Source: an uncultured archaeon
GTDB taxonomy: Archaea > Thermoproteota > Nitrososphaeria > Nitrososphaerales > Gagatemarchaeaceae
Direction of reading: 5' to 3'
Assembly: GCA_963817525.1 (NCBI GenBank)
Contig: CAWFOU010000007.1
Span: forward strand, 480,001 to 544,000
Length of the DNA stretch: 64,000 bases
The notes under the pieces are model-generated. The model saw nothing but the letters and a program-made list of their open reading frames with translations. It ran no database searches and was not told the DNA's origin. Numbering within the stretch: the first letter of the stretch is position 1; every line of letters starts with the position of its first letter. The translations under genes were made by a program, and so were the position numbers. Below are positions 23,371 to 56,060 of this stretch, in pieces.

Positions 23371-24096
23371 ATGAAGTTCTCGAGGAGGGGCCTCAGCCAG
23401 CTAGGCGAGATAGGGGTCGTCGCCCTGGTGATCATCGTCGTGGTGGCCGCCTACTTCTTCGTCCCGCCGCTCATCAAGGGGAGCGCGTCGACGACGACTA
23501 CTAGCATCGGAGGCCCGAACCCCATAGCGGACCAGAGCCAGCAGATATTCCCGCTCGTCACGAACTTCAAGGACATGACGCTAGTCGAGGACATCAACGA
23601 CGTGGCCGCCGGGTACGTGCAGAACACGACCTACGCCTTCACCGTGCTGGGCAAGGGCACACTGAACTCCACCCAGTACACCAGGGTAGAGTTCTCCACC
23701 TACGGAGAGACCCATTTCACAGTCGCCTGGTACAACTCGACGGGGGGGCTCGGCCGGCTGGACATCATCGGGCTCAGGAACTACACCGGGAGCGGCCTGG
23801 TCAACCTCCCCTACATCCAGACGTACATCAACGCCTTCTACGTCCTCATCTCCGTTACCAACAACGCCACGCTCAACGCGCACCTCACGAGGACGTCCCA
23901 GAGCGCCACGAGCATAGGCGACACCAAGGTCAACCTCTCGACGTACACCCTGGCGGAGCGGACACCCGTCCTCTCCAAGGTCACTGAGGAGGTCGCGTCG
24001 ATCCCGGGGACCAACATCGTGATGATGGTCTACCTCAACGAGAAGCTGAGCGACGGGTCGACCTACCTCTTCCAGGTCACGAGCCTCAAGCGGTGA
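23371..24096 (+). CDS. surface protein with a class III (archaellin/pilin-type) signal peptide
   Basis: MKFSRRG|LSQLGEIGVVALVIIVVVAAYFF, Thr linker, several NxT/S sequons. Confidence 0.7.
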   Translation: MKFSRRGLSQLGEIGVVALVIIVVVAAYFFVPPLIKGSASTTTTSIGGPNPIADQSQQIFPLVTNFKDMTLVEDINDVAAGYVQNTTYAFTVLGKGTLNSTQYTRVEFSTYGETHFTVAWYNSTGGLGRLDIIGLRNYTGSGLVNLPYIQTYINAFYVLISVTNNATLNAHLTRTSQSATSIGDTKVNLSTYTLAERTPVLSKVTEEVASIPGTNIVMMVYLNEKLSDGSTYLFQVTSLKR

Positions 24097-24120
24097 GGGC
24101 GCCAAGGCGGGCTCCCTTCA

Positions 24121-24132
24121 ATAATTATATAG
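24121..24132 (+). promoter_or_regulatory. TATA box of the ku-lig-polX operon
   Basis: ATAATTATATAG ~30 nt upstream of ATG 24161, consistent with a leaderless transcript. Confidence 0.55.
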
Positions 24133-24160
24133 TCGCCTGCCTGATTTTGGTCCGGCCGCC

Positions 24161-25003
24161 ATGGCAAAGAACATCTTCTCCGAAGTAGAGAAGCAGGCGG
24201 ACGCCGGGGGGGCGTCTAGGGCGTCCTGGCGCGGGATCCTGAGCCTCAATATCCCCACCCTGGGCCTCGGGGCGGTGGAGTACCACCTCCGCGCGGCGAA
24301 GGCCCATGGGGATCTGAAGCCCGTGACCTTCGTGAAGCTAGACAAGAAGACGGGGAAGGAGGTCGTGAGCAGGGAGGTCCCGAGGATGTATCGCTACAAG
24401 GAGGGGCCCGACGGCGAGCGCACCGACGTCGCGGAGATCTCGCCCGAGGACGCCAAGAAGAAGGTCAGGTACGACGGCAAGTACATGGTCTCCGTGAGGA
24501 CGGAGAAGAGGTACTTCCTCAAGCACGAGCTCGAGATGTCGGGCCACTGGATAGAGGTCCCCGCCGACCGCATCGTGGACAAGCAGGACGGAGAGGAGAT
24601 AGAGCCCTTCGAGAGGACGACGCGGGTCGAGGTTGAGCAGGACGGGTTCGTCCCCATCGAGCGGCTAGAGGAGTACAAGTTCAAGGAGGTGTACCAGCTG
24701 TCGCCCGACACGGACAAGAGGGTCAAGGAGACCACCGCGAGGGTCAAGCAGCTCGCGCGCTACCTGCTGGAGAAGCACACGGCGCTCGTCGCCTTCTTCT
24801 CCTGGGGGAGGGGGTACCAGTTCTACACCGCGGTCATCTACCCGTACGAGCGCAAGGACGGGAAGCTCTGGCTCCTGATGGGGATGAGCGAGGGCATACT
24901 GAAGCTCGACACGGCCTGGGCGCTCGAGAGCGAGGAGCAGGGCGAGGGCCTCGCGCCGGTCCCGACGGCGAAGAAGAAGCCCAAGGTCACGATATCGAAG
25001 TAG
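24161..25003 (+). CDS. ku: Ku-like DNA end-binding protein (divergent prokaryotic Ku)
   Basis: RASWRGILSL..LGLGAV (cf. RAIWKG.ISFGLV); F.KLDKKTG; ERTTRVEVEQDGFVPIERLEEYKFKEVYQLSPD (cf. STRTIEI..FV...IDP.YF..PYYL.PD); LARYLLEKHTALVAFF...TAVIYP; basic C-tail; directly upstream of a ligase. Confidence 0.75.
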   Translation: MAKNIFSEVEKQADAGGASRASWRGILSLNIPTLGLGAVEYHLRAAKAHGDLKPVTFVKLDKKTGKEVVSREVPRMYRYKEGPDGERTDVAEISPEDAKKKVRYDGKYMVSVRTEKRYFLKHELEMSGHWIEVPADRIVDKQDGEEIEPFERTTRVEVEQDGFVPIERLEEYKFKEVYQLSPDTDKRVKETTARVKQLARYLLEKHTALVAFFSWGRGYQFYTAVIYPYERKDGKLWLLMGMSEGILKLDTAWALESEEQGEGLAPVPTAKKKPKVTISK

Positions 25004-25021
25004 CTTGCCGAGAGTCCACCC

Positions 25022-25861
25022 ATGAGCGAGCTGCCGGACTACGTCGCGGAGCACTTCGCCCACGCGGTGAAGCAGGACCTCGGGACGTGGCTACTTCACA
25101 ACCCCCTCCCAGCGCTCGTCGAGCCGAAGCTTGACGGGATCAGGGTCTTCCTCTTCAAGAGCGGGGACAAGCTCGTCATCTCGAGCAAGCACGGCGGGAT
25201 GTACACGCCCCAGTCTAGCCCCAAGGTCTTCGCTACGTTCCCCGAGCTGCTGCACACCCCTCACAGGATGATCCTAGACGGCGAGTACGTGTCGAGGGAG
25301 CCTATCAAGAGGAAGGGGGTGTTCCTCTTCGACGTGATGCAGGTCGACGACAGGGACATCGGGTCGCAGCCCCTGAGCGAGAGGAAGAAGGTCCTCCGAG
25401 AGATACTGGAGGACACGGGCCTGGAGGTCCCCTACAGCATGGCGAAGACCGCCCAGGAGGTGCTGGTGCTCAAGGAGCGCTACGCGAAGGAGGGATACGA
25501 GGGGGCCGTCGCCAAGAACCCGCTGTCCGCCTACGGGGATCAAGGCTCGTGGCTCAAGCTCAAGACGTTCGAGACCATCGACGTGTTCGTCATGGACTAT
25601 GAGAAGACCCAGGAGATGGAGAGGACCGGCGTCCCCCGCTCATGGGTGGTAGGGGTCTACGACGACCAGGGTAGGAGGGTGTCCCTTGGGAAGGTCGGGG
25701 CGTTCGTCGAGAAGGTCGACCCCCGCCAGGTGAAGAAACACTCCGTGGTCGAGGTGAGGTACCAGGAGATCACACAGGACATGAAGCTGCGCGGGGCGTT
25801 CATCCTGAGGGTCAGGCACGACAAGGTCCCCAGCGAGTGCCTGCTCTCCCAGGCCAAGTGA
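25022..25861 (+). CDS. minimal ATP-dependent DNA ligase (adenylation + OB domains; LigD-LIG/LigC-like)
   Basis: Motifs I EPKLDGIR, III ILDGE, IIIa FLFDV, IV EGAVAK, V WLKLK, VI LRVRHDK. Confidence 0.9.
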   Translation: MSELPDYVAEHFAHAVKQDLGTWLLHNPLPALVEPKLDGIRVFLFKSGDKLVISSKHGGMYTPQSSPKVFATFPELLHTPHRMILDGEYVSREPIKRKGVFLFDVMQVDDRDIGSQPLSERKKVLREILEDTGLEVPYSMAKTAQEVLVLKERYAKEGYEGAVAKNPLSAYGDQGSWLKLKTFETIDVFVMDYEKTQEMERTGVPRSWVVGVYDDQGRRVSLGKVGAFVEKVDPRQVKKHSVVEVRYQEITQDMKLRGAFILRVRHDKVPSECLLSQAK

Positions 25862-25870
25862 GGAGAGAGG

Positions 25871-26413
25871 ATGCCCTCCCTGAAGAAGGACCTCGACCCG
25901 AAAGCCGCCGGGAGGATTGCGGGCGACTTTCTGAAGAAGACCTCCGACCTCTATTACAGGGCGGAGCTTGGCGGGAGCATCCGTAGGAAGGCCCCGGTCG
26001 TCCATGACATCGACTTCGCTGTCATCCCCAAGGGGGACGACTTTCCAAAGTGGAAGGAGGAGGTGACGGACCGCGTCGTCGAGATCGGCGGGAGGGTCAT
26101 CACCTTCGGCGAGGTCATCTCTGACTTTTTCTACAAGGGGGCGCAGGTAAACCTCTTCCTCTGCCCCGGGCCTGACTCCTGGGGCGTGACCCTGATGTGG
26201 GCCACGGGCCCGAAGGGCCACACCATCGGGATGACGATAAAGGCGAGGGACAAGGGGCTCCTCATCAACTCTAGGGGAATATGGACCCGGGAGGAGCACC
26301 CCCGTCTGGTGCCCGCGAGGACGGAGCACGAGGTCGGCAAGATACTGGGGTGGAAGTACAAGCCCCCGGAGGAGCGCGGGAAGGACGTCAAGGAAAAGCC
26401 GGCCTTCTACTAG
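25871..26413 (+). CDS. polX: minimal family X DNA polymerase-like protein (palm + thumb only)
   Basis: GGSIRRKAPVVHDIDF, QVNLF, WATGPKGH, KGLLINSRG, TEHEV...LGWKYKPPEER; AGGAG-rich spacer upstream. Confidence 0.85.
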   Translation: MPSLKKDLDPKAAGRIAGDFLKKTSDLYYRAELGGSIRRKAPVVHDIDFAVIPKGDDFPKWKEEVTDRVVEIGGRVITFGEVISDFFYKGAQVNLFLCPGPDSWGVTLMWATGPKGHTIGMTIKARDKGLLINSRGIWTREEHPRLVPARTEHEVGKILGWKYKPPEERGKDVKEKPAFY

Positions 26414-26428
26414 GACGGTGGACGGAGC

Positions 26429-27424
26429 CTACTCGGGCCACTTGCCGAGCTCGCTGAGGGCGCGGTCGACGAATCGCATGTCGACCCAGTCCTTTACGGG
26501 CGCGGAGGGGGCCGCCGGGACCTGTCCGGACTTTACGAGCACCGCCACGGTGTCCTTCACCCAGCCGGGGTCGAGACTCCCGTTGACCGGCCAGTGCCCG
26601 CGGGTCTGCTCCCAGAGCTTCTTGATCGCGTCCCTCCCCAGCTCAGGGCGTCTCTTCGCCGCCGCGGCGACCCACACTGACGGGTGCTCGCTGAACTCTC
26701 TGGACGCCTTCACCAGGCCCTTCACTGCCGAGAGGACAGTCTGGGGCTCCTCCTCGACCAGCTGAGCTCTCGCCACGACCACGAGGTACCCCACCTCGCC
26801 ACCCTCGGCGACCTCCCTGCCCTTTGCGAGGATCCTGAAGCCCTTCTTCCCCTCGAAGAGGGCCATCGTCTGCGACGTCGTCCAAGCGGCGTCCAGCTCG
26901 CCGTCGATGACCTTGTTGATCCTCTCGCTGGGGACGGTGCCTCCCTCGACCCAGCGCACGCCCGACTCGGGGTCGATGCCGTGGTCCCTGAGGTAGGAGG
27001 CGACCGAGCGATGGTTCGTGGCCCCCTTTTGTGAGATGCCGATCCTCTTTCCCCTCAGCTGTTCTGCGGTCTTGATGGACGCTGAGGTGACCAGCATCAC
27101 CCCTCCGTCGGGAGGGACGGAGCTGGGTGGCGGCGGCTTTAGCGGGTTCCCGTGCACGCTCCCCCACACCACCCTGAGCGCGGCACCCTTCGCCACTTCG
27201 GCGACGACGGGGGAGATGTTGACCTGCGCCATGTCCGCTTCGTCCCTCTCCGTGGCCGCGAGCGCCTGGGGTGTCCCGTCGCACCCCAGGATCTTGACGT
27301 TCAGGCCCTCCTTCGACATGAAGCCGAGGTCGGCCGCGAACGCGGGGACGGAGCCCGTGTTCAGCGACACCGGCTTGACCCGGTCGGCAAACGTTATCGT
27401 GCGCGCTTTTCGCTTGGCTGCCAC
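26429..27424 (-). CDS. SsuA/NMT1-THI5-like ABC substrate-binding protein
   Basis: GFMSKEGLNV, IKTAEQLRGKRIGIS, GELDAA. Confidence 0.8.
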   Translation of the reverse strand: MAAKRKARTITFADRVKPVSLNTGSVPAFAADLGFMSKEGLNVKILGCDGTPQALAATERDEADMAQVNISPVVAEVAKGAALRVVWGSVHGNPLKPPPPSSVPPDGGVMLVTSASIKTAEQLRGKRIGISQKGATNHRSVASYLRDHGIDPESGVRWVEGGTVPSERINKVIDGELDAAWTTSQTMALFEGKKGFRILAKGREVAEGGEVGYLVVVARAQLVEEEPQTVLSAVKGLVKASREFSEHPSVWVAAAAKRRPELGRDAIKKLWEQTRGHWPVNGSLDPGWVKDTVAVLVKSGQVPAAPSAPVKDWVDMRFVDRALSELGKWPE

Positions 27425-51212: not shown

Positions 51213-52445
51213 CTAAGACGGAGTGTGTTTTCCGCAGTAGTTCTTCTTCAGAAGGAGACCCTTCGTCACGATATGGTCAACACAGAAGCTCTTTCCACAG
51301 GTAACACAGACAGCGCTGTGGTCTTCGCACGCAAGGCCTCCACATTCCACGCACAATTGAGCGCCACCCTCGCTCTTATGTTGGCCGTCCACATTGCAGT
51401 AGATGAAGTCGTCGGAGACCATGTGGTTGGTCGCAACTTGTAATTTGCGCCCATAGGTTCTGTCCTTGTACCTGAAGGTCGCCGTCACCAAAGGTAGGTT
51501 TGCCTGCTTGACTGAGACTATCCGCACATGCGAGATGGACGGCCTCAATGTCATCGATCTGAATGTGCCGTTCTTCAGCGTGCGCGTAAACTCTTGACAG
51601 AGGTTCCTTGCGATTTCTATCCTTGCTATCTTCTCTGCTTCATACTGGCTGACTTTCACTGGAATGGCCTCGAGTTTGTTGAATTGCGTTCCCTCGGCGA
51701 TTGTCGACCTTGGAGTCTCAACAGCTTCGATTTCTCGGCAGTCGGCAAAATAACCTCTCATCGGCAAATTCGGTCGGACGCCTGATTCTACTTCCACGTC
51801 GACCACCTGTCCTTTCTGGCCTTCGATCACAAGCACGCCTTTGCTGGAGAAGTTCACCCTTTGGTAGAGGAAACTGCCTTCAGTGAAACAGTCATACTCC
51901 ACGAAGAAGCAAGGCATGTATTCCAAATTTAGTCCTGAAAGCTCAATCTGACTCGAAACCCCATTCCTGATTGTCTGTTTGAGGCCTGGTAAGATGGGGA
52001 GGGCATAGACAGTTTTCTCTCCGACCGGCCCTTTTGCGAGGTCCCTGCCAAGCACCTTCCTAAATTCCGCCTTGAAGGCCCCATCGAGGTCGTTAAGATT
52101 CCAAGGGTATAATGAAATGAGTTTGATTCCATTCTTGCGGTATTGCTCTGTCTTCCATTCCTTATCCTGACGGTACTTGTTCCTGTCCTGCCAATCGCCC
52201 ACGTCGATTAGACCCCAATACTCGACGTGAACTCCGTAGTCGGGGAGATGGAAGTCTGGCCTGCTGATTTCAGTTCTGAATGCTGATTGGGTAGTCTTCG
52301 CTCGGTCTTCGTAGACGTATCTTATGTTATTTTCATTGAAATAGTCAGCTATCTGCTTCTCCGCTCGACTCTTCACAATCTCGCCTCGCACTGTTTTGCT
52401 TTGCTCTCCGTACTGCCTGCCAGGATATGAGCGAGGGGTACTCAA
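51213..52445 (-). CDS. PD-(D/E)xK-like nuclease domain protein with C-terminal Cys/His zinc fingers
   Basis: VKSRAEKQIADYF...RPDFHLPDYGVHVEYWG; CVECGGLACEDH..VCVTCGKSFCVDH. Confidence 0.75.
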   Translation of the reverse strand: MSTPRSYPGRQYGEQSKTVRGEIVKSRAEKQIADYFNENNIRYVYEDRAKTTQSAFRTEISRPDFHLPDYGVHVEYWGLIDVGDWQDRNKYRQDKEWKTEQYRKNGIKLISLYPWNLNDLDGAFKAEFRKVLGRDLAKGPVGEKTVYALPILPGLKQTIRNGVSSQIELSGLNLEYMPCFFVEYDCFTEGSFLYQRVNFSSKGVLVIEGQKGQVVDVEVESGVRPNLPMRGYFADCREIEAVETPRSTIAEGTQFNKLEAIPVKVSQYEAEKIARIEIARNLCQEFTRTLKNGTFRSMTLRPSISHVRIVSVKQANLPLVTATFRYKDRTYGRKLQVATNHMVSDDFIYCNVDGQHKSEGGAQLCVECGGLACEDHSAVCVTCGKSFCVDHIVTKGLLLKKNYCGKHTPS

Positions 52446-52545
52446 TGAACGAAATCTGCAATTCTCGCATATTTATCCGATATTGACTTGGAATCCGGTC
52501 CGATTTCTGGACTTTCCAGGGAGCAAATTATTCCGTTGGCCTAAA

Positions 52546-53540
52546 TCAGGCCATAAACCCGAACTCGTTTGCAACTCCGTCCACCCACTTCTTGTCGACG
52601 TCTGAGACGACCACATGTCTGCCCATCCTCATCGCTTCCTTCGCCCATTTCGCCACGCCGCAGAAAAAGTCGGCTACGACGTCGCCCGCCCCTGCTGTAG
52701 GCCTTGATAATCTGGAGGAATTCGACTGGATCCTTCACGGCCTCGTGCTTCACGAACCCCGGCTTGGCAGGATTCCTGACCCTCTTCGCATCGATCACGT
52801 TCGTCGCGCCCAGGTCCCATCGGACCCCGTTCCGCTCCCCGGCGTGGAAGACCAGCCACTTCGCCCCCAGATCCCGGCCCGCGTCGTAGCCCATCCCTAA
52901 CACGTCGAGAGCGACGAGTATCTCGCCTTAGTAGACGAATCCGAGAGACTCCGCCAAGGCGATCATAGACTGGATGCTCGGCCTGGTAGTCTTGTTCTCG
53001 AGCGGGACCCTGATGATGCAGGCCGCGCCGCCCCTCGGCCAGTCGCCGCTCCTCCTCCGCTCGAGGTTGAGGGTGTTCCATTGCTTGTTCTTCTTGAGGA
53101 TTCTGAATGCTTCTCTGAAGAAGTCGGCGTCCAGCTCGGGCTGGTGGTATGTCCTTCCCCCCCAGGAGCCTGTGCGGCCTCGTGGTGCCGGTGCCTGCCC
53201 ACTCCCGGCCGAACTTGCCTGGAACGTCAGAGAGGAGAAGGTCGAGCGAGTCGTCGTCCAGCTTCTTCATGATGTCCCAAGCGTTGCCCTCGACGAGGAG
53301 TATCTGGGCCTCACCTGAACGCGCGAAGTATACCCCCTCCTCGACCCGGACTATCGTGCCCTCCTTCACGGCCTCGTGGAGTCTAGCCCTTACGGAGTGT
53401 TCCGGGACCTCAGGCTTCCAGCTGTGAACGAAATCGTAGATTGAGCGAAGCGGTTCGGGCTGCTCTGAGCAGGCGTTGATAGCGAGCTGCTTCGTTGTCA
53501 GAGCCTGCCCAAGCCTGTCAGATGCTCGTGGCGGATTCAT
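52546..53540 (-). pseudogene. beta-class N4/N6 DNA methyltransferase with N-terminal wHTH, disrupted
   Basis: EGNAW...DDSLDLLLSDVPG (motif IV region), HEAVKDP, GDVVADFFCG (motif I); frameshifts ~53160 and ~52690, in-frame TAA ~52928. Confidence 0.7.
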
Positions 53541-53594
53541 ATTATGTCGGATCGGTATGGATCACTGACTGAGCTGATATAAGCGCCCATCTGC

Positions 53595-54368
53595 TTACAA
53601 GGACTGGGAGTCCACATAACGATACTCTCCTGACTCTAAGAACTCGATGAAACCCAAGTCGCGCAGGAATTGGAGCTGTTGCCTGATTTTTGGTCTCACG
53701 TTGTGGTTGTCAGGGTGCTTTGCTGCAAGCTCGCTCTCGAAGTCGTAGATATTCGCGAGGGTGAAGTTTGTGAAGCACCTTTCAACGCATCTCAGGACGT
53801 CTGCCAGCCATCCTCTCGTCTCTGGCCTCGACTTGAGAAGGGAATCCGTCTGCTTCCACTGCGCGAGTACCTGTGATTTCTCCCGGACCTGTCCCCCGCG
53901 GACCACCGCAATCTGTCCCTGAGCGGGAATCTCTCTTAGCGTGATCGTGTAGCCTTGCCAGCCCGCGCGCCTGGCGGTGGAGGAGAGCGGTATCCGGGGT
54001 GCGATGCAACTGGTTGTGATGCAGGCCCTGTGCACGAGGGAGAGGTCCTGCACAGCCCACTTGGCGCGGTCGTAGTGAAGCAGAATCAGCGAGGGGAACG
54101 CGTCTTTCAAGATGCTCTCTCGCGTCGTCTCGTATTCCCCGCCGAGTATCGATGTCGAGAAGATGCGGCTCGCAGACTTGAGCTGGAACTTCTCCCTGCA
54201 TTCGGCCGAGTAAAAATCGTAGATCTTGGTGTTGGGAGGGTAGGTAATCAGGTCGGTGCCGCAGGCGGCGCAGTAGAAGTTGTCGGCGGCCCAGCGCTCG
54301 GTGGATACCCGCGCCATCTGAGAAGCACTCTTGAGCCCAGCGGGGGGTGTTGGAAGTGCGAGGTCCAT
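53595..54368 (-). CDS. DpnI-like (Dam-replacing protein family) restriction endonuclease
   Basis: SQMARVSTERW...YCAACG, DFY, FQLKS, STARRAGWQG, C-terminal winged helix HPDNHNVRPKIRQQLQFLRDLG. Confidence 0.9.
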   Translation of the reverse strand: MDLALPTPPAGLKSASQMARVSTERWAADNFYCAACGTDLITYPPNTKIYDFYSAECREKFQLKSASRIFSTSILGGEYETTRESILKDAFPSLILLHYDRAKWAVQDLSLVHRACITTSCIAPRIPLSSTARRAGWQGYTITLREIPAQGQIAVVRGGQVREKSQVLAQWKQTDSLLKSRPETRGWLADVLRCVERCFTNFTLANIYDFESELAAKHPDNHNVRPKIRQQLQFLRDLGFIEFLESGEYRYVDSQSL

Positions 54369-54373
54369 TGCAA

Positions 54374-54910
54374 TCAGTCTAGTGAAGGGGAAGTGATAGC
54401 GCTCAACAAATCACCGATGTTGTACCTTTTTTCTTTGAGTTCTAATCCAGCAATCTTCTTCAGACTCTTGATTGTTATCTTCACAGGACCGCTGAATCGG
54501 GCCTCTCGGTGAGGAAGCACGTAAAGCGCGAAATTCCTACCGCCTTTCCTGAGCAACTCTTCGAAATCAAACCACATCAGGTAATCGGCGTTGATATCCT
54601 TCTCGCCGAAATACTCGAATCCCTTTGTAGTGCCTTTGACTTCGATTCGTACTTCGGTCTGACCGTGCGACCCTATAATGTCTGCTTCGTTGCCTCCGAA
54701 GCGGAAGTCATACCCCTTCACTTCCGTGATGAGACCGCCTCGAAGGAGATGAATCGCTAGAGACTCGGTAAGTTTCGGCGGAAGCTTTGGATACTGGATG
54801 TCAGCCGCAAGTGGGTTGCTCTTCTTCAGATTAGTAATGTAGTTGAAAACGTCATTTAGTAGCAATACAAATTGGTTAATCTCGCGGGGAGAAAGGAGCT
54901 GTCTCGCCAA
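54374..54910 (-). CDS. putative PD-(D/E)xK restriction endonuclease
   Basis: TES...EADI...IEVKGT catalytic-like motif; operonic with DpnI. Confidence 0.6.
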   Translation of the reverse strand: MARQLLSPREINQFVLLLNDVFNYITNLKKSNPLAADIQYPKLPPKLTESLAIHLLRGGLITEVKGYDFRFGGNEADIIGSHGQTEVRIEVKGTTKGFEYFGEKDINADYLMWFDFEELLRKGGRNFALYVLPHREARFSGPVKITIKSLKKIAGLELKEKRYNIGDLLSAITSPSLD

Positions 54911-54913
54911 GGG

Positions 54914-55186
54914 TTAGACCTTGGCCCCCGAAATTTCTTTGACTTTGGAAGAGACCAGTCGACCTTGCTTCGAGGCAACGAATAATTTTCCTGATCTTTG
55001 CTTTGGAGTTAGGGACTCGACGAGTTTCCTGGCGAGAAGTTCGCGTAATGCTCTACTGATATTTGGTATGCTGGTATGGAGGTCCGTCGCGAGAAGGGTA
55101 GGAGTACTAGGGGCGTCTAACTTGGCGAGGACCGCTTTCCTAGTCTTGCTGCGCAGGACGTAGCTTACGTCCTCCCACGACATCAC
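54914..55186 (-). CDS. ArsR-like winged-HTH regulator
   Basis: SYVLRSKTRKAVL..L..PSTPTLLA...NISRALREL..KLVE. Confidence 0.8.
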   Translation of the reverse strand: MMSWEDVSYVLRSKTRKAVLAKLDAPSTPTLLATDLHTSIPNISRALRELLARKLVESLTPKQRSGKLFVASKQGRLVSSKVKEISGAKV

Positions 55187-55197
55187 GCGAGCGACAG

Positions 55198-55262
55198 TTA
55201 ACAGATCATATTGATCTAGTTATCAGATGATTAACAAAGAATTAACAGAATATCCTCTAAAT
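55198..55262. promoter_or_regulatory. divergent promoter/operator with a palindrome and phased repeats
   Basis: AGATCA-TAT-TGATCT palindrome; TTA(A/T)CA(G/A)A at 55198, 55220, 55231, 55242. Confidence 0.6.
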
Positions 55263-55285
55263 CTTGGAATTTTTTCCCATTTCGG

Positions 55286-55981
55286 TTGATGGTCAAGGCA
55301 GGAGATGTAATCTCGTATCTTCAAATGTGCGCTGAAGAGAATACGAGCTTTCGGAGAGGTATGAATTTTGGTCGGAAAGGAAGGCCAAGTGTGATTCTAA
55401 TGAGTACTAGACCAGGTGCTCCATACAAGGACCGAGTGGAGGAGAACGGAAGAGTTCTGATCTACGAGGGACATGACAATCCCGTGCCCGGCAACGGAAG
55501 AAAGCCAAAGGAGGTGGACCAAGAGTCGAGAACGCCTGAAGGAGGTCTTACCCAAAACGGTCTATTCTATGAAGCTGCTCAGAGTTACAAAGATGGAAGT
55601 TCAGCTTCTGAGATAGTCAAAGTGTACGAGAAAATTCGAACCGGAATATGGGTATACAACGGTCTATTCAGGTTGCTTGACGCTTCCACAGTGGTCATTG
55701 AAGGAAGACAGGTGTTCAAGTTTCGTTTGGAATTGGTAGGGAATGTAGAAACAATTGATTCAGGAAGAAAGGAACTGGAAGATACCAGAATTATTCCGTC
55801 TCCCGTAAAGTTGGAAGTTTGGAAGAGGGACGGCGGAAAGTGCGTCAAGTGTGGCTCCAAGAATAACCTTCATTTTGATCACATAATTCCATATTCATTA
55901 GGCGGCACTTCGCTTTATGCCAAGAACATTCAGCTGCTTTGTATCAGACACAACTTGGAGAAGCACGACAAGATAGAATAG
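55286..55981 (+). CDS. SRA-like + HNH endonuclease (type IV restriction candidate)
   Basis: SVILMS...YKD...LIYEG...DQ...VKVYE...WVYNGLF...FKFRL (SRA-like); RDGGKCVKCG...FDHIIP.S.GG...NIQLLC..HN. Confidence 0.8.
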   Translation: MMVKAGDVISYLQMCAEENTSFRRGMNFGRKGRPSVILMSTRPGAPYKDRVEENGRVLIYEGHDNPVPGNGRKPKEVDQESRTPEGGLTQNGLFYEAAQSYKDGSSASEIVKVYEKIRTGIWVYNGLFRLLDASTVVIEGRQVFKFRLELVGNVETIDSGRKELEDTRIIPSPVKLEVWKRDGGKCVKCGSKNNLHFDHIIPYSLGGTSLYAKNIQLLCIRHNLEKHDKIE

Positions 55982-56060
55982 GGAAGATCTGAATTTGCCG
56001 GGTTTCATCTTGCTTCCGCCGGGGCATTCCATTAACACGTTGAGCGATAGGTAGTAGAGT

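Follow-up and report, generated by a model that had tools for sequence, protein, structure and literature searches.

What does a compact run of genes for a Ku-like protein, a small ATP-dependent DNA ligase and a relative of the family X DNA polymerases (PolX) do in the genome of an uncultured soil archaeon? The genes lie in a stretch of 64,000 nucleotides, referred to here as the window (contig CAWFOU010000007.1, positions 480,001 to 544,000), from a member of the order Nitrososphaerales whose GTDB family is probably Gagatemarchaeaceae. End joining is rare in archaea and is biochemically known only from the Methanocella system, which uses a polymerase of the archaeo-eukaryotic primase (AEP) type. 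Archaeal non-homologous end joining (NHEJ) has been described solely as Ku, ligase (Lig), AEP polymerase (Pol) and phosphoesterase (PE) in PMC11936186 and PMC7554672. A first-pass annotation of the window had proposed a dedicated end-joining module of eukaryote-like composition, in which PolX replaces the AEP polymerase. Here, the three genes are described as an operon that is conserved in non-ammonia-oxidising soil Thaumarchaeota, in the window's family and in a second family of Nitrososphaerales. On balance, this operon probably serves the joining or sealing of broken DNA ends, with a PolX-like protein that is catalytically doubtful, and it seems to be a form of prokaryotic end joining that has not been described before.

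Layout and conservation of the operon

The features of the operon and its borders are the following:
24120..24131, plus strand: A/T-rich, TATA-box-like element AATAATTATATA, read directly in the sequence
24161..25003, plus strand: Ku gene, coding for a divergent Ku homologue of 280 aa (the end coordinate includes the stop codon)
25022..25861, plus strand: ligase gene, coding for a minimal ATP-dependent DNA ligase of 279 aa with a nucleotidyltransferase and a putative OB domain
25871..26413, plus strand: mini PolX-like gene, coding for 180 aa that comprise only a palm and a C-terminal subdomain ('thumb' in Pfam)
26429-27424, minus strand: convergent gene for an NMT1/THI5-like binding protein, ending 15 nt past the PolX stop codon

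The three proteins together comprise 739 residues. Their genes are separated by 18 nt (Ku to ligase) and 9 nt (ligase to PolX), as given by the list of open reading frames (ORFs) and by reading of the junctions, and the coordinates agree with the earlier description of three co-oriented genes behind one TATA box and in front of a convergent gene. The element AATAATTATATA is a 12-nt all-A/T run located 29 nt ahead of the Ku ATG, in DNA of ~63% G+C. In 31 of 46 relatives an all-A/T octamer lies between -60 and -16 relative to the Ku start, compared with 193 of 9200 random 45-nt windows drawn from these loci (2.1%), and cores of the TTAAATA/TTAATTA type are common to these upstream elements. Because such octamers are conserved at Ku starts and not at the starts of the ligase (0/41) or PolX (1/40), the comparison supports a single putative promoter upstream of Ku that would serve all three genes. 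The G+C content of positions 24001-26000 (0.629) is similar to that of the neighbouring bins, within surroundings of 60-67%, as had also been noted earlier.

A Ku query gave matches in 24 of the 36 genomes of the window's family and in none of 24 genomes from 19 other families. Ku, ligase and PolX occur together in 18 of the 19 loci fetched from these relatives, and the 19th locus ends just after the ligase. In addition, a contig search across archaeal metagenome-assembled genomes (MAGs), a check that the first-pass annotation had named, found 47 related loci, one of them titled Candidatus Gagatemarchaeum; every one comes from a MAG of Nitrososphaerales, of Thaumarchaeota or of an unclassified archaeon. 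Forty of these carry Ku, ligase and PolX in this order, one carries Ku and ligase, and six carry only Ku, two of which end within ~220 nt of Ku; the 19-locus and 47-locus samples overlap and their genomes are kin, so that the counts show persistence and not independent events. The genes flanking the triplet in the window rarely recur, the upstream one in 5/47 loci at varying distances and the downstream one in 2/47. The triplet is therefore the conserved unit, since its order is kept in 40/47 loci while the flanks differ, and the proposal of a dedicated, conserved module behind one putative promoter is supported. In the second GTDB family (f7), both loci examined hold the triplet with the active-site signature described below (the same contigs as loci L070 and L079). 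Where homologues of Ku and PolX carry a name, it is that of a Nitrososphaerales or Thaumarchaeota archaeon, and a few Ku entries are already named 'Ku protein'.

Some loci depart from the compact layout. In L045, L055, L061 (the same as L005), L086 and L007, ~0.5-1.5 kb are inserted at the Ku-ligase or the ligase-PolX junction, with the order kept. One genome that holds a full triplet (L081) also encodes a second divergent Ku that is 57-59% identical (L083 4001-4849), with no ligase or PolX match within 4 kb downstream; it is possible that this copy is a paralogue with another partner.

The three encoded proteins

The product of gene 1 is matched by the Pfam Ku model (PF02735, Ku70/Ku80 beta-barrel) with 36.3 bits at a cut-off of 25 (E 7.1e-9), and the Ku signatures reported earlier are thereby confirmed. 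A search of PDB sequences with the single sequence returned nothing relevant. The profile of the family matched mycobacterial Ku (M. tuberculosis) at 8.7e-6 and 2.1e-5 and nothing else in the PDB at E <= 10, Ku70/80 chains included. Profile-profile alignment (hhalign) to six canonical Ku proteins of sister families gave a probability of 74.7 (E 2.6e-5) and aligned the N-terminal R..W.G motif and the T..I.V/..Y..P block. An AlphaFold2 model, built on a 46-row alignment that includes distant members, reached a predicted local distance difference test (pLDDT) of 84.1 and a predicted template modelling score (pTM) of 0.66. With this model, Foldseek found 108 matches in the PDB at E <= 0.001, and the top matches listed are all Ku (Ku80, Bacillus subtilis Ku and M. 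tuberculosis Ku), with a probability of 1.00 over ~250 columns. The product of gene 1 is thus predicted to have the Ku fold, a beta-barrel with bridge and pillars. Based on the Pfam, model, Foldseek, hhalign and PDB profile matches, gene 1 encodes a very divergent Ku.

The protein is also predicted to pair with itself. Homodimer prediction, which had been named as a check together with the fold and profile comparisons, gave a score of 0.61 against 0.00 for the best of three controls. Three runs scored 0.59-0.62, at least 85% of the contacts agreed and the partner pLDDT was at least 78. In calibration, 20 of 30 proteins with structures solved as one-chain pairs passed the mark for a homodimer, as did 1 of 23 with single-chain structures, counts that hold only roughly here since a custom alignment was used.

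Among 1.84 billion cluster representatives, the profile matched only 59 proteins at E <= 0.001, so that the divergent Ku family is small and isolated in sequence space. Its members share a conserved C-terminal tail, KKKPKV..SK, and a search for fused Ku forms of 491-2000 aa yielded none, which is weak evidence. A fold from 25 close relatives was set aside owing to its shallow alignment (pLDDT 50.2), and an Atlas lead to eukaryotic Ku clusters, with a recognition of 2031 that stays under the mark of 2300, received no support from the PDB profile search. In a few genomes the Ku gene is broken: in G009 it is interrupted by two in-frame TGA codons (G009:C3:1963263-1964108), and in G020 (G020:C51:76785-77622), L084 (4001-4775) and L087 (2102-2868) two overlapping frames share the match between them. 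These could be cases of decay or assembly errors.

Gene 2 encodes a ligase with a clear adenylation domain (DNA_ligase_A_M, PF01068; 72.6 bits, cut-off 26.2). Models for the C-terminal OB domain score just below their cut-offs (DNA_ligase_A_C 26.6 versus 27.5, and DNA_ligase_OB_2 18 versus 28). The best NCBIfam model is NHEJ_ligase_lig, the ligase domain of LigD, with 92.1 bits, below its cut-off of 227.75. In the PDB, the protein matches archaeal ligases (E 2.4e-16 over residues 99-263, with alignments running to 263-268), followed by the M. tuberculosis LigD ligase domain (3.9e-8) and then ligase IV (7.2e-6). Motif I is KLDG with K36; of 41 relatives, 38 have KxDG and three have KYEG. The earlier claim that all ATP-ligase motifs are present is backed by a model for the adenylation domain and motif I; motifs III, IIIa, IV, V and VI, the last as the R..R.DK-like stretch RVRHDK, were read by eye in the sequence. 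A length of 279 aa leaves no space for an N-terminal DNA-binding domain, and the protein has neither this domain nor a BRCT domain nor any further one.

Gene 3 encodes the smallest protein, which matches DNA_pol_B_thumb with 43.4 bits at a cut-off of 25. The Pfam palm model gave no match, and the Pfam scan of its 180 aa also found no 8-kDa deoxyribose phosphate (dRP) lyase/HhH domain and no PHP domain. Its best PDB match is bacterial, PolX of Thermus thermophilus (residues 181-314, E 7.8e-11), with Pol mu (E 4.5e-5) and African swine fever virus (ASFV) Pol X among the later ones. The family profile (15-168) aligns end to end with the ASFV Pol X chain (18-173 of 174; E 5.4e-6), a protein of the same size and the same two-subdomain architecture. 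By sequence comparison, the palm and C-terminal subdomain are thus homologous to those of Pol beta-type enzymes.

The PolX signatures noted earlier are therefore present, except at the active site, where the third catalytic Asp is replaced. HDIDF aligns with GDLDF and QVNLF with QVDL of T. thermophilus PolX, from which it follows that the triad is D46-D48-N94, with N94 in the metal-A ligand position, at the place of D243. The DDN triad recurs in every one of 40 related loci and in each of the 18 sequences of a second set, which overlaps with the first. The three-carboxylate triad of family X (DxD + D) is thus absent, and for this reason the protein is called PolX-like and not a polymerase. Asp is kept at this position in T. 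thermophilus PolX, in a full-length PolX of the same genome and in two phage short PolXs, and presumably also in ASFV Pol X. No conserved acidic residue stands in nearby: among the 18 sequences, position 81 varies between E, Q and D and position 85 between D, N and T. The most invariant stretch of the protein, WGVTLMWATGPKGHTIGM, faces nucleotide and template. Also invariant in the family are the two-Asp, GS..RR and TG.K.H motifs, the latter two of which we take to be nucleotide-contacting residues. Since only the palm and C-terminal subdomain are present and the metal-A ligand is Asn in 40/40 relatives, robust gap-filling polymerase activity appears doubtful.

Median ratios of nonsynonymous to synonymous substitution (dN/dS) are 0.124 for Ku (35 usable of 44 pairs), 0.222 for the ligase (34 of 41) and 0.197 for the PolX-like protein (31 of 40), obtained by NG86 from pairs with dS < 2.5 and approximate since the median dS is ~1. 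These values show purifying selection on all three genes, and, given its low median, the PolX-like gene is not decaying.

Short PolXs are also found in tailed phages. Two GenBank phage records were matched, below 30% identity: Acinetobacter phage Ab1-TPeters (L089 3782-4513) and Vibrio phage 2.275.O (L090 3644-4408). They encode proteins of 243 and 254 aa, both annotated as hypothetical, that are 27-29% identical to the archaeal protein (E 5e-8 and 5e-5) and align over 79-93% of it. Unlike the archaeal family, the phage proteins keep the third Asp, and no Ku or ligase gene lies beside theirs in the two records examined. The ESM Atlas look-alike clusters nearest to the mini-PolX (158-197 aa) are 71-90% viral (Uroviricota), a lead only, which would suggest that short PolXs are common in Uroviricota.

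Known systems and competing explanations

The remaining end-joining and repair genes of the window's genome (95.06% complete, 8.75% contamination) bear on the role of the operon. No match to LigD_Prim-Pol (PF21686, AEP) was found in this genome, while control genomes were matched. A stand-alone LigD_N (PF13298) 3'-phosphoesterase of 199 aa (130.6 bits) is encoded ~600 kb from the operon. The earlier statement that a phosphoesterase is lacking thus holds for the operon only. The two unlinked genes of interest are:
G000:C7:1110870-1111241 (locus L022 1315-1914), minus strand: phosphoesterase gene, between genes for a ferritin/Dps-like protein and a CDC48 AAA ATPase
G000:C8 (locus L028 766-2457): full-length canonical PolX of 563 aa with HHH_8, HHH_5, palm, thumb and PHP domains

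The phosphoesterase is present in 18 of 24 Ku-positive and 9 of 12 Ku-negative genomes of the family, in 12 of 24 genomes of other families and in 39 of the 61 genomes of the order sample. A co-distribution with Ku was therefore rejected, and the phosphoesterase is not specifically tied to the operon, as it is as common without Ku as with it. The 563-aa PolX is 32% identical to the product of gene 3 over residues 180-307 and has QVDL, with Asp, at the place of N94. Because the same genome holds this canonical enzyme, the mini-PolX is an extra, specialised copy of the fold. The genome also encodes three other ATP-dependent ligases.

Two kinds of Ku were found by a Pfam survey of 151 genomes of the order. 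Canonical Ku proteins that match the whole profile (E 1e-41 to 1e-49) occur in two families, f15 (12 of 23 genomes) and f4 (1 of 9), and their genes adjoin that of either a LigD primase-polymerase (268.7 and 250 bits) or a LigD-type ligase of 325 aa. This fits the published acquisition of a complete NHEJ set from bacteria by Nitrososphaerales (PMC7554672). NHEJ genes of ammonia oxidisers are on record there and in PMC13006922, and Thaumarchaeota Ku is on record for Nitrososphaera and Nitrosocosmicus (PMC11936186). In contrast, Ku proteins that match part of the profile occur in f1 and f7. The window's family thus belongs to the same order as the ammonia oxidisers with canonical NHEJ, of the Nitrososphaeraceae type, and likewise keeps Ku beside end-joining enzymes, but its operon combines a divergent Ku with a mini-PolX.

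The operon resembles the archaeo-prokaryotic systems, Ku with LigD or the separate Ku, Lig, Pol (AEP) and PE of Methanocella paludicola, in that a homodimer-type Ku is linked to an ATP ligase with a nucleotidyltransferase and a putative OB domain. Also, the ligase scores best on the LigD ligase model and the Ku profile matches mycobacterial Ku. It differs from LigD systems in that the ligase is neither fused nor linked to an AEP or a phosphoesterase. With eukaryotic NHEJ (Ku70/80, ligase IV and Pol lambda, mu or TdT) the operon shares the three protein superfamilies. However, its Ku is predicted to be a homodimer and not a heterodimer, its ligase has no DNA-binding or BRCT domain, and its PolX has no BRCT or 8-kDa domain. 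The components are not specifically related to eukaryotic ones, as ligase IV matches more weakly than archaeal ligases and LigD, and Pol mu more weakly than bacterial PolX. The 'eukaryote-like composition' of the first-pass annotation is thus correct for the superfamilies, whereas by sequence Ku and PolX are prokaryote-like. The likeness to eukaryotic NHEJ, as far as the alignments indicate, is one of composition and not of demonstrated descent.

PolXs with an altered triad have been linked to end joining before. In PMC9226535, such noncanonical PolXs are without polymerase activity and yet enriched in genomes that encode NHEJ. LigD is their commonest operon neighbour in Alphaproteobacteria, and an ATP ligase adjoins canonical PolXs in Methanomicrobia (PMC9226535). 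These noncanonical proteins, ~573 aa in length, have a PHP domain besides the 8-kDa domain and work by means of the PHP exonuclease, whereas the product of gene 3 has neither domain and for that reason cannot act in this way. The same survey holds only 10 sequences below 400 aa. Literature searches, with the supplementary files of PMC7554672 (Data Set S1), PMC9226535 (Table S3) and PMC10640624 outside their scope, did not turn up any account of a Ku-ligase-PolX operon, this divergent Ku family or a DDN mini-PolX, in line with the first-pass annotation, in which the architecture had not been recognised. The main text of the Gagatemarchaeaceae paper (PMC10640624) makes no mention of DNA repair, NHEJ, end joining, ligase or polymerase.

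How such an operon could work can be outlined as follows. The divergent Ku homodimer, predicted in fold and pairing, would thread onto DNA ends, as expected from its family, and would bring in the 279-aa ligase. The ligase appears to have all catalytic motifs and should depend on a partner for engaging its substrate, because it has no DNA-binding domain of its own. The PolX-like protein, judging from its relatives, would most likely bind the end or gap, probably with a nucleotide, and align or bridge the substrates. It would stand in the place of the AEP polymerase domain of Ku-LigD, with a nucleotidyl transfer that may be weak, Mn-dependent or otherwise altered, so that no robust gap filling is expected. 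The cleaning of ends would be left to the unlinked stand-alone phosphoesterase and the full-length PolX with its PHP domain. The earlier claim that PolX replaces the AEP polymerase is thus weakened by the small size of the protein and by its Asn at the metal-A site.

Several observations weigh against end joining by a Ku-based operon, or against parts of it. The Pfam Ku match spans only residues 144-237 (profile positions 68-162 of 190), and gene 1 fails the NCBIfam Ku_bact equivalog (TIGR02772) with 15.8 bits against a cut-off of 150. The protein is not filed as an orthologue of bacterial Ku because of this low score, while homology to prokaryotic Ku is still supported. The Foldseek TM-scores to Ku structures are modest (0.35-0.51). 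Ku homodimers have already been solved, so that the dimer prediction may reflect likeness to these and not binding by this copy. Among the 36 family genomes, 12 have no Ku match, many of them being incomplete. One locus (L087) has Ku and ligase without PolX, and four (L069, L076, L083 and L088) have no ligase match despite 0.6-4 kb of room downstream. Also, an Asn at the metal-A site is no proof of inactivity, and retained catalysis would explain the invariance of the surrounding active site equally well.

In an unlikely alternative, the version of the first-pass annotation, the same end-joining operon contains a mini-PolX that is a fully competent gap-filling or end-extending polymerase, replacing the LigD AEP in the way that Pol lambda and mu do in eukaryotes. 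In favour of this, the mini-PolX aligns end to end with ASFV Pol X, an active 174-aa polymerase; its two-Asp, GS..RR and TG.K.H motifs are invariant, it is under purifying selection, and a LigD-type AEP was not found in the genome. Set against this are the Asn in 40/40 relatives at a position where the same genome's full-length PolX, the T. thermophilus enzyme and both phage proteins keep Asp, the lack of a conserved acidic residue nearby and the presence of a canonical PolX in the genome. Furthermore, this superfamily cannot do without the Asp triad, and polymerisation drops strongly on single substitutions (PMC9226535).

A role in the repair of nicks, gaps or abasic sites, with Ku as an apurinic/apyrimidinic (AP)/dRP lyase or nick-protecting clamp, the PolX-like protein bound at the gap and the ligase as the sealing enzyme, is more improbable still. 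Minimal ligases are nick sealers, and ASFV Pol X works with a viral ligase in base excision repair. No nuclease or phosphoesterase for the cleaning of ends is encoded in the operon, and abasic sites are processed by bacterial Ku proteins (PMC4245934). Nevertheless, a Ku fold with a predicted extensive symmetric dimer is an end-threading ring in every studied case, the DDN triad makes the gap-filling step doubtful, and ordinary excision repair could draw on three other ATP ligases and the full-length PolX. A domesticated or still mobile viral or plasmid module, which would act on foreign or linear DNA instead of repairing the chromosome (for example in end protection, circularisation or interference with invading DNA), is the reading that we hold to be very improbable. 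The largely viral Atlas clusters (a lead only) and the two phage PolXs point in this direction, as do the minimal ligases of similar size in SPO1-like phages, the differing flanks of the triplet and the carriage of Ku by some phages (PMC11936186). Ligase matches in GenBank phages amount to 34 records, all below 30% identity. On the other hand, no Ku match was found in 50,697 GenBank phage records, and no relative of Ku or the mini-PolX was confirmed among IMG/VR viral contigs, in which pattern matches were found. None of the three proteins matched a PADLOC defence model, tRNA and Rfam scans of the window gave no match, and the G+C content of the operon is like that of the surrounding DNA. Moreover, the triplet occurs across two families with vertical-looking divergence and low dN/dS.

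The favoured reading, an end-joining operon with a catalytically doubtful PolX-like protein, can be extended to a bolder one, which is possible but rather doubtful. The operon would then be a third, independently assembled end-joining machine beside AEP-LigD and the eukaryotic pathway, and the X-family protein with its invariant metal-A Asn would be either a 'pseudo-polymerase' selected as the synapsis and alignment factor for Ku and the ligase without a DNA-binding domain, or an enzyme with a nucleotidyl-transfer chemistry as yet unseen in family X. If so, evolution would have put Ku, ligase and PolX together at least two times, one of them in a TACK archaeon. In either case, a family of abundant acidic-soil archaea keeps a combination of protein families used by eukaryotes, built from prokaryote-like parts, as one operon. 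This operon provides a tractable system for testing how Ku recruits a ligase without a DNA-binding domain and what an X-family palm does with an Asn at its catalytic metal. In addition, genome surveys by BLAST with Methanocella or bacterial NHEJ proteins would miss this Ku because of its low score on the bacterial Ku model.

Surrounding DNA

Directly upstream of the TATA-like element lies a co-oriented ORF of 241 aa (23371-24096) without a significant Pfam match, which is outside the operon. Farther downstream, positions 52000-56000 form a low-G+C stretch (0.488 in 54001-56000, versus ~0.62 elsewhere in the window). This stretch holds, among ORFs without Pfam matches, a gene for a DpnI-like methyl-directed restriction endonuclease (53595-54368, minus strand; DpnI 184 bits) and one for an HNH endonuclease (55286-55981), and it is probably a horizontally acquired defence islet.

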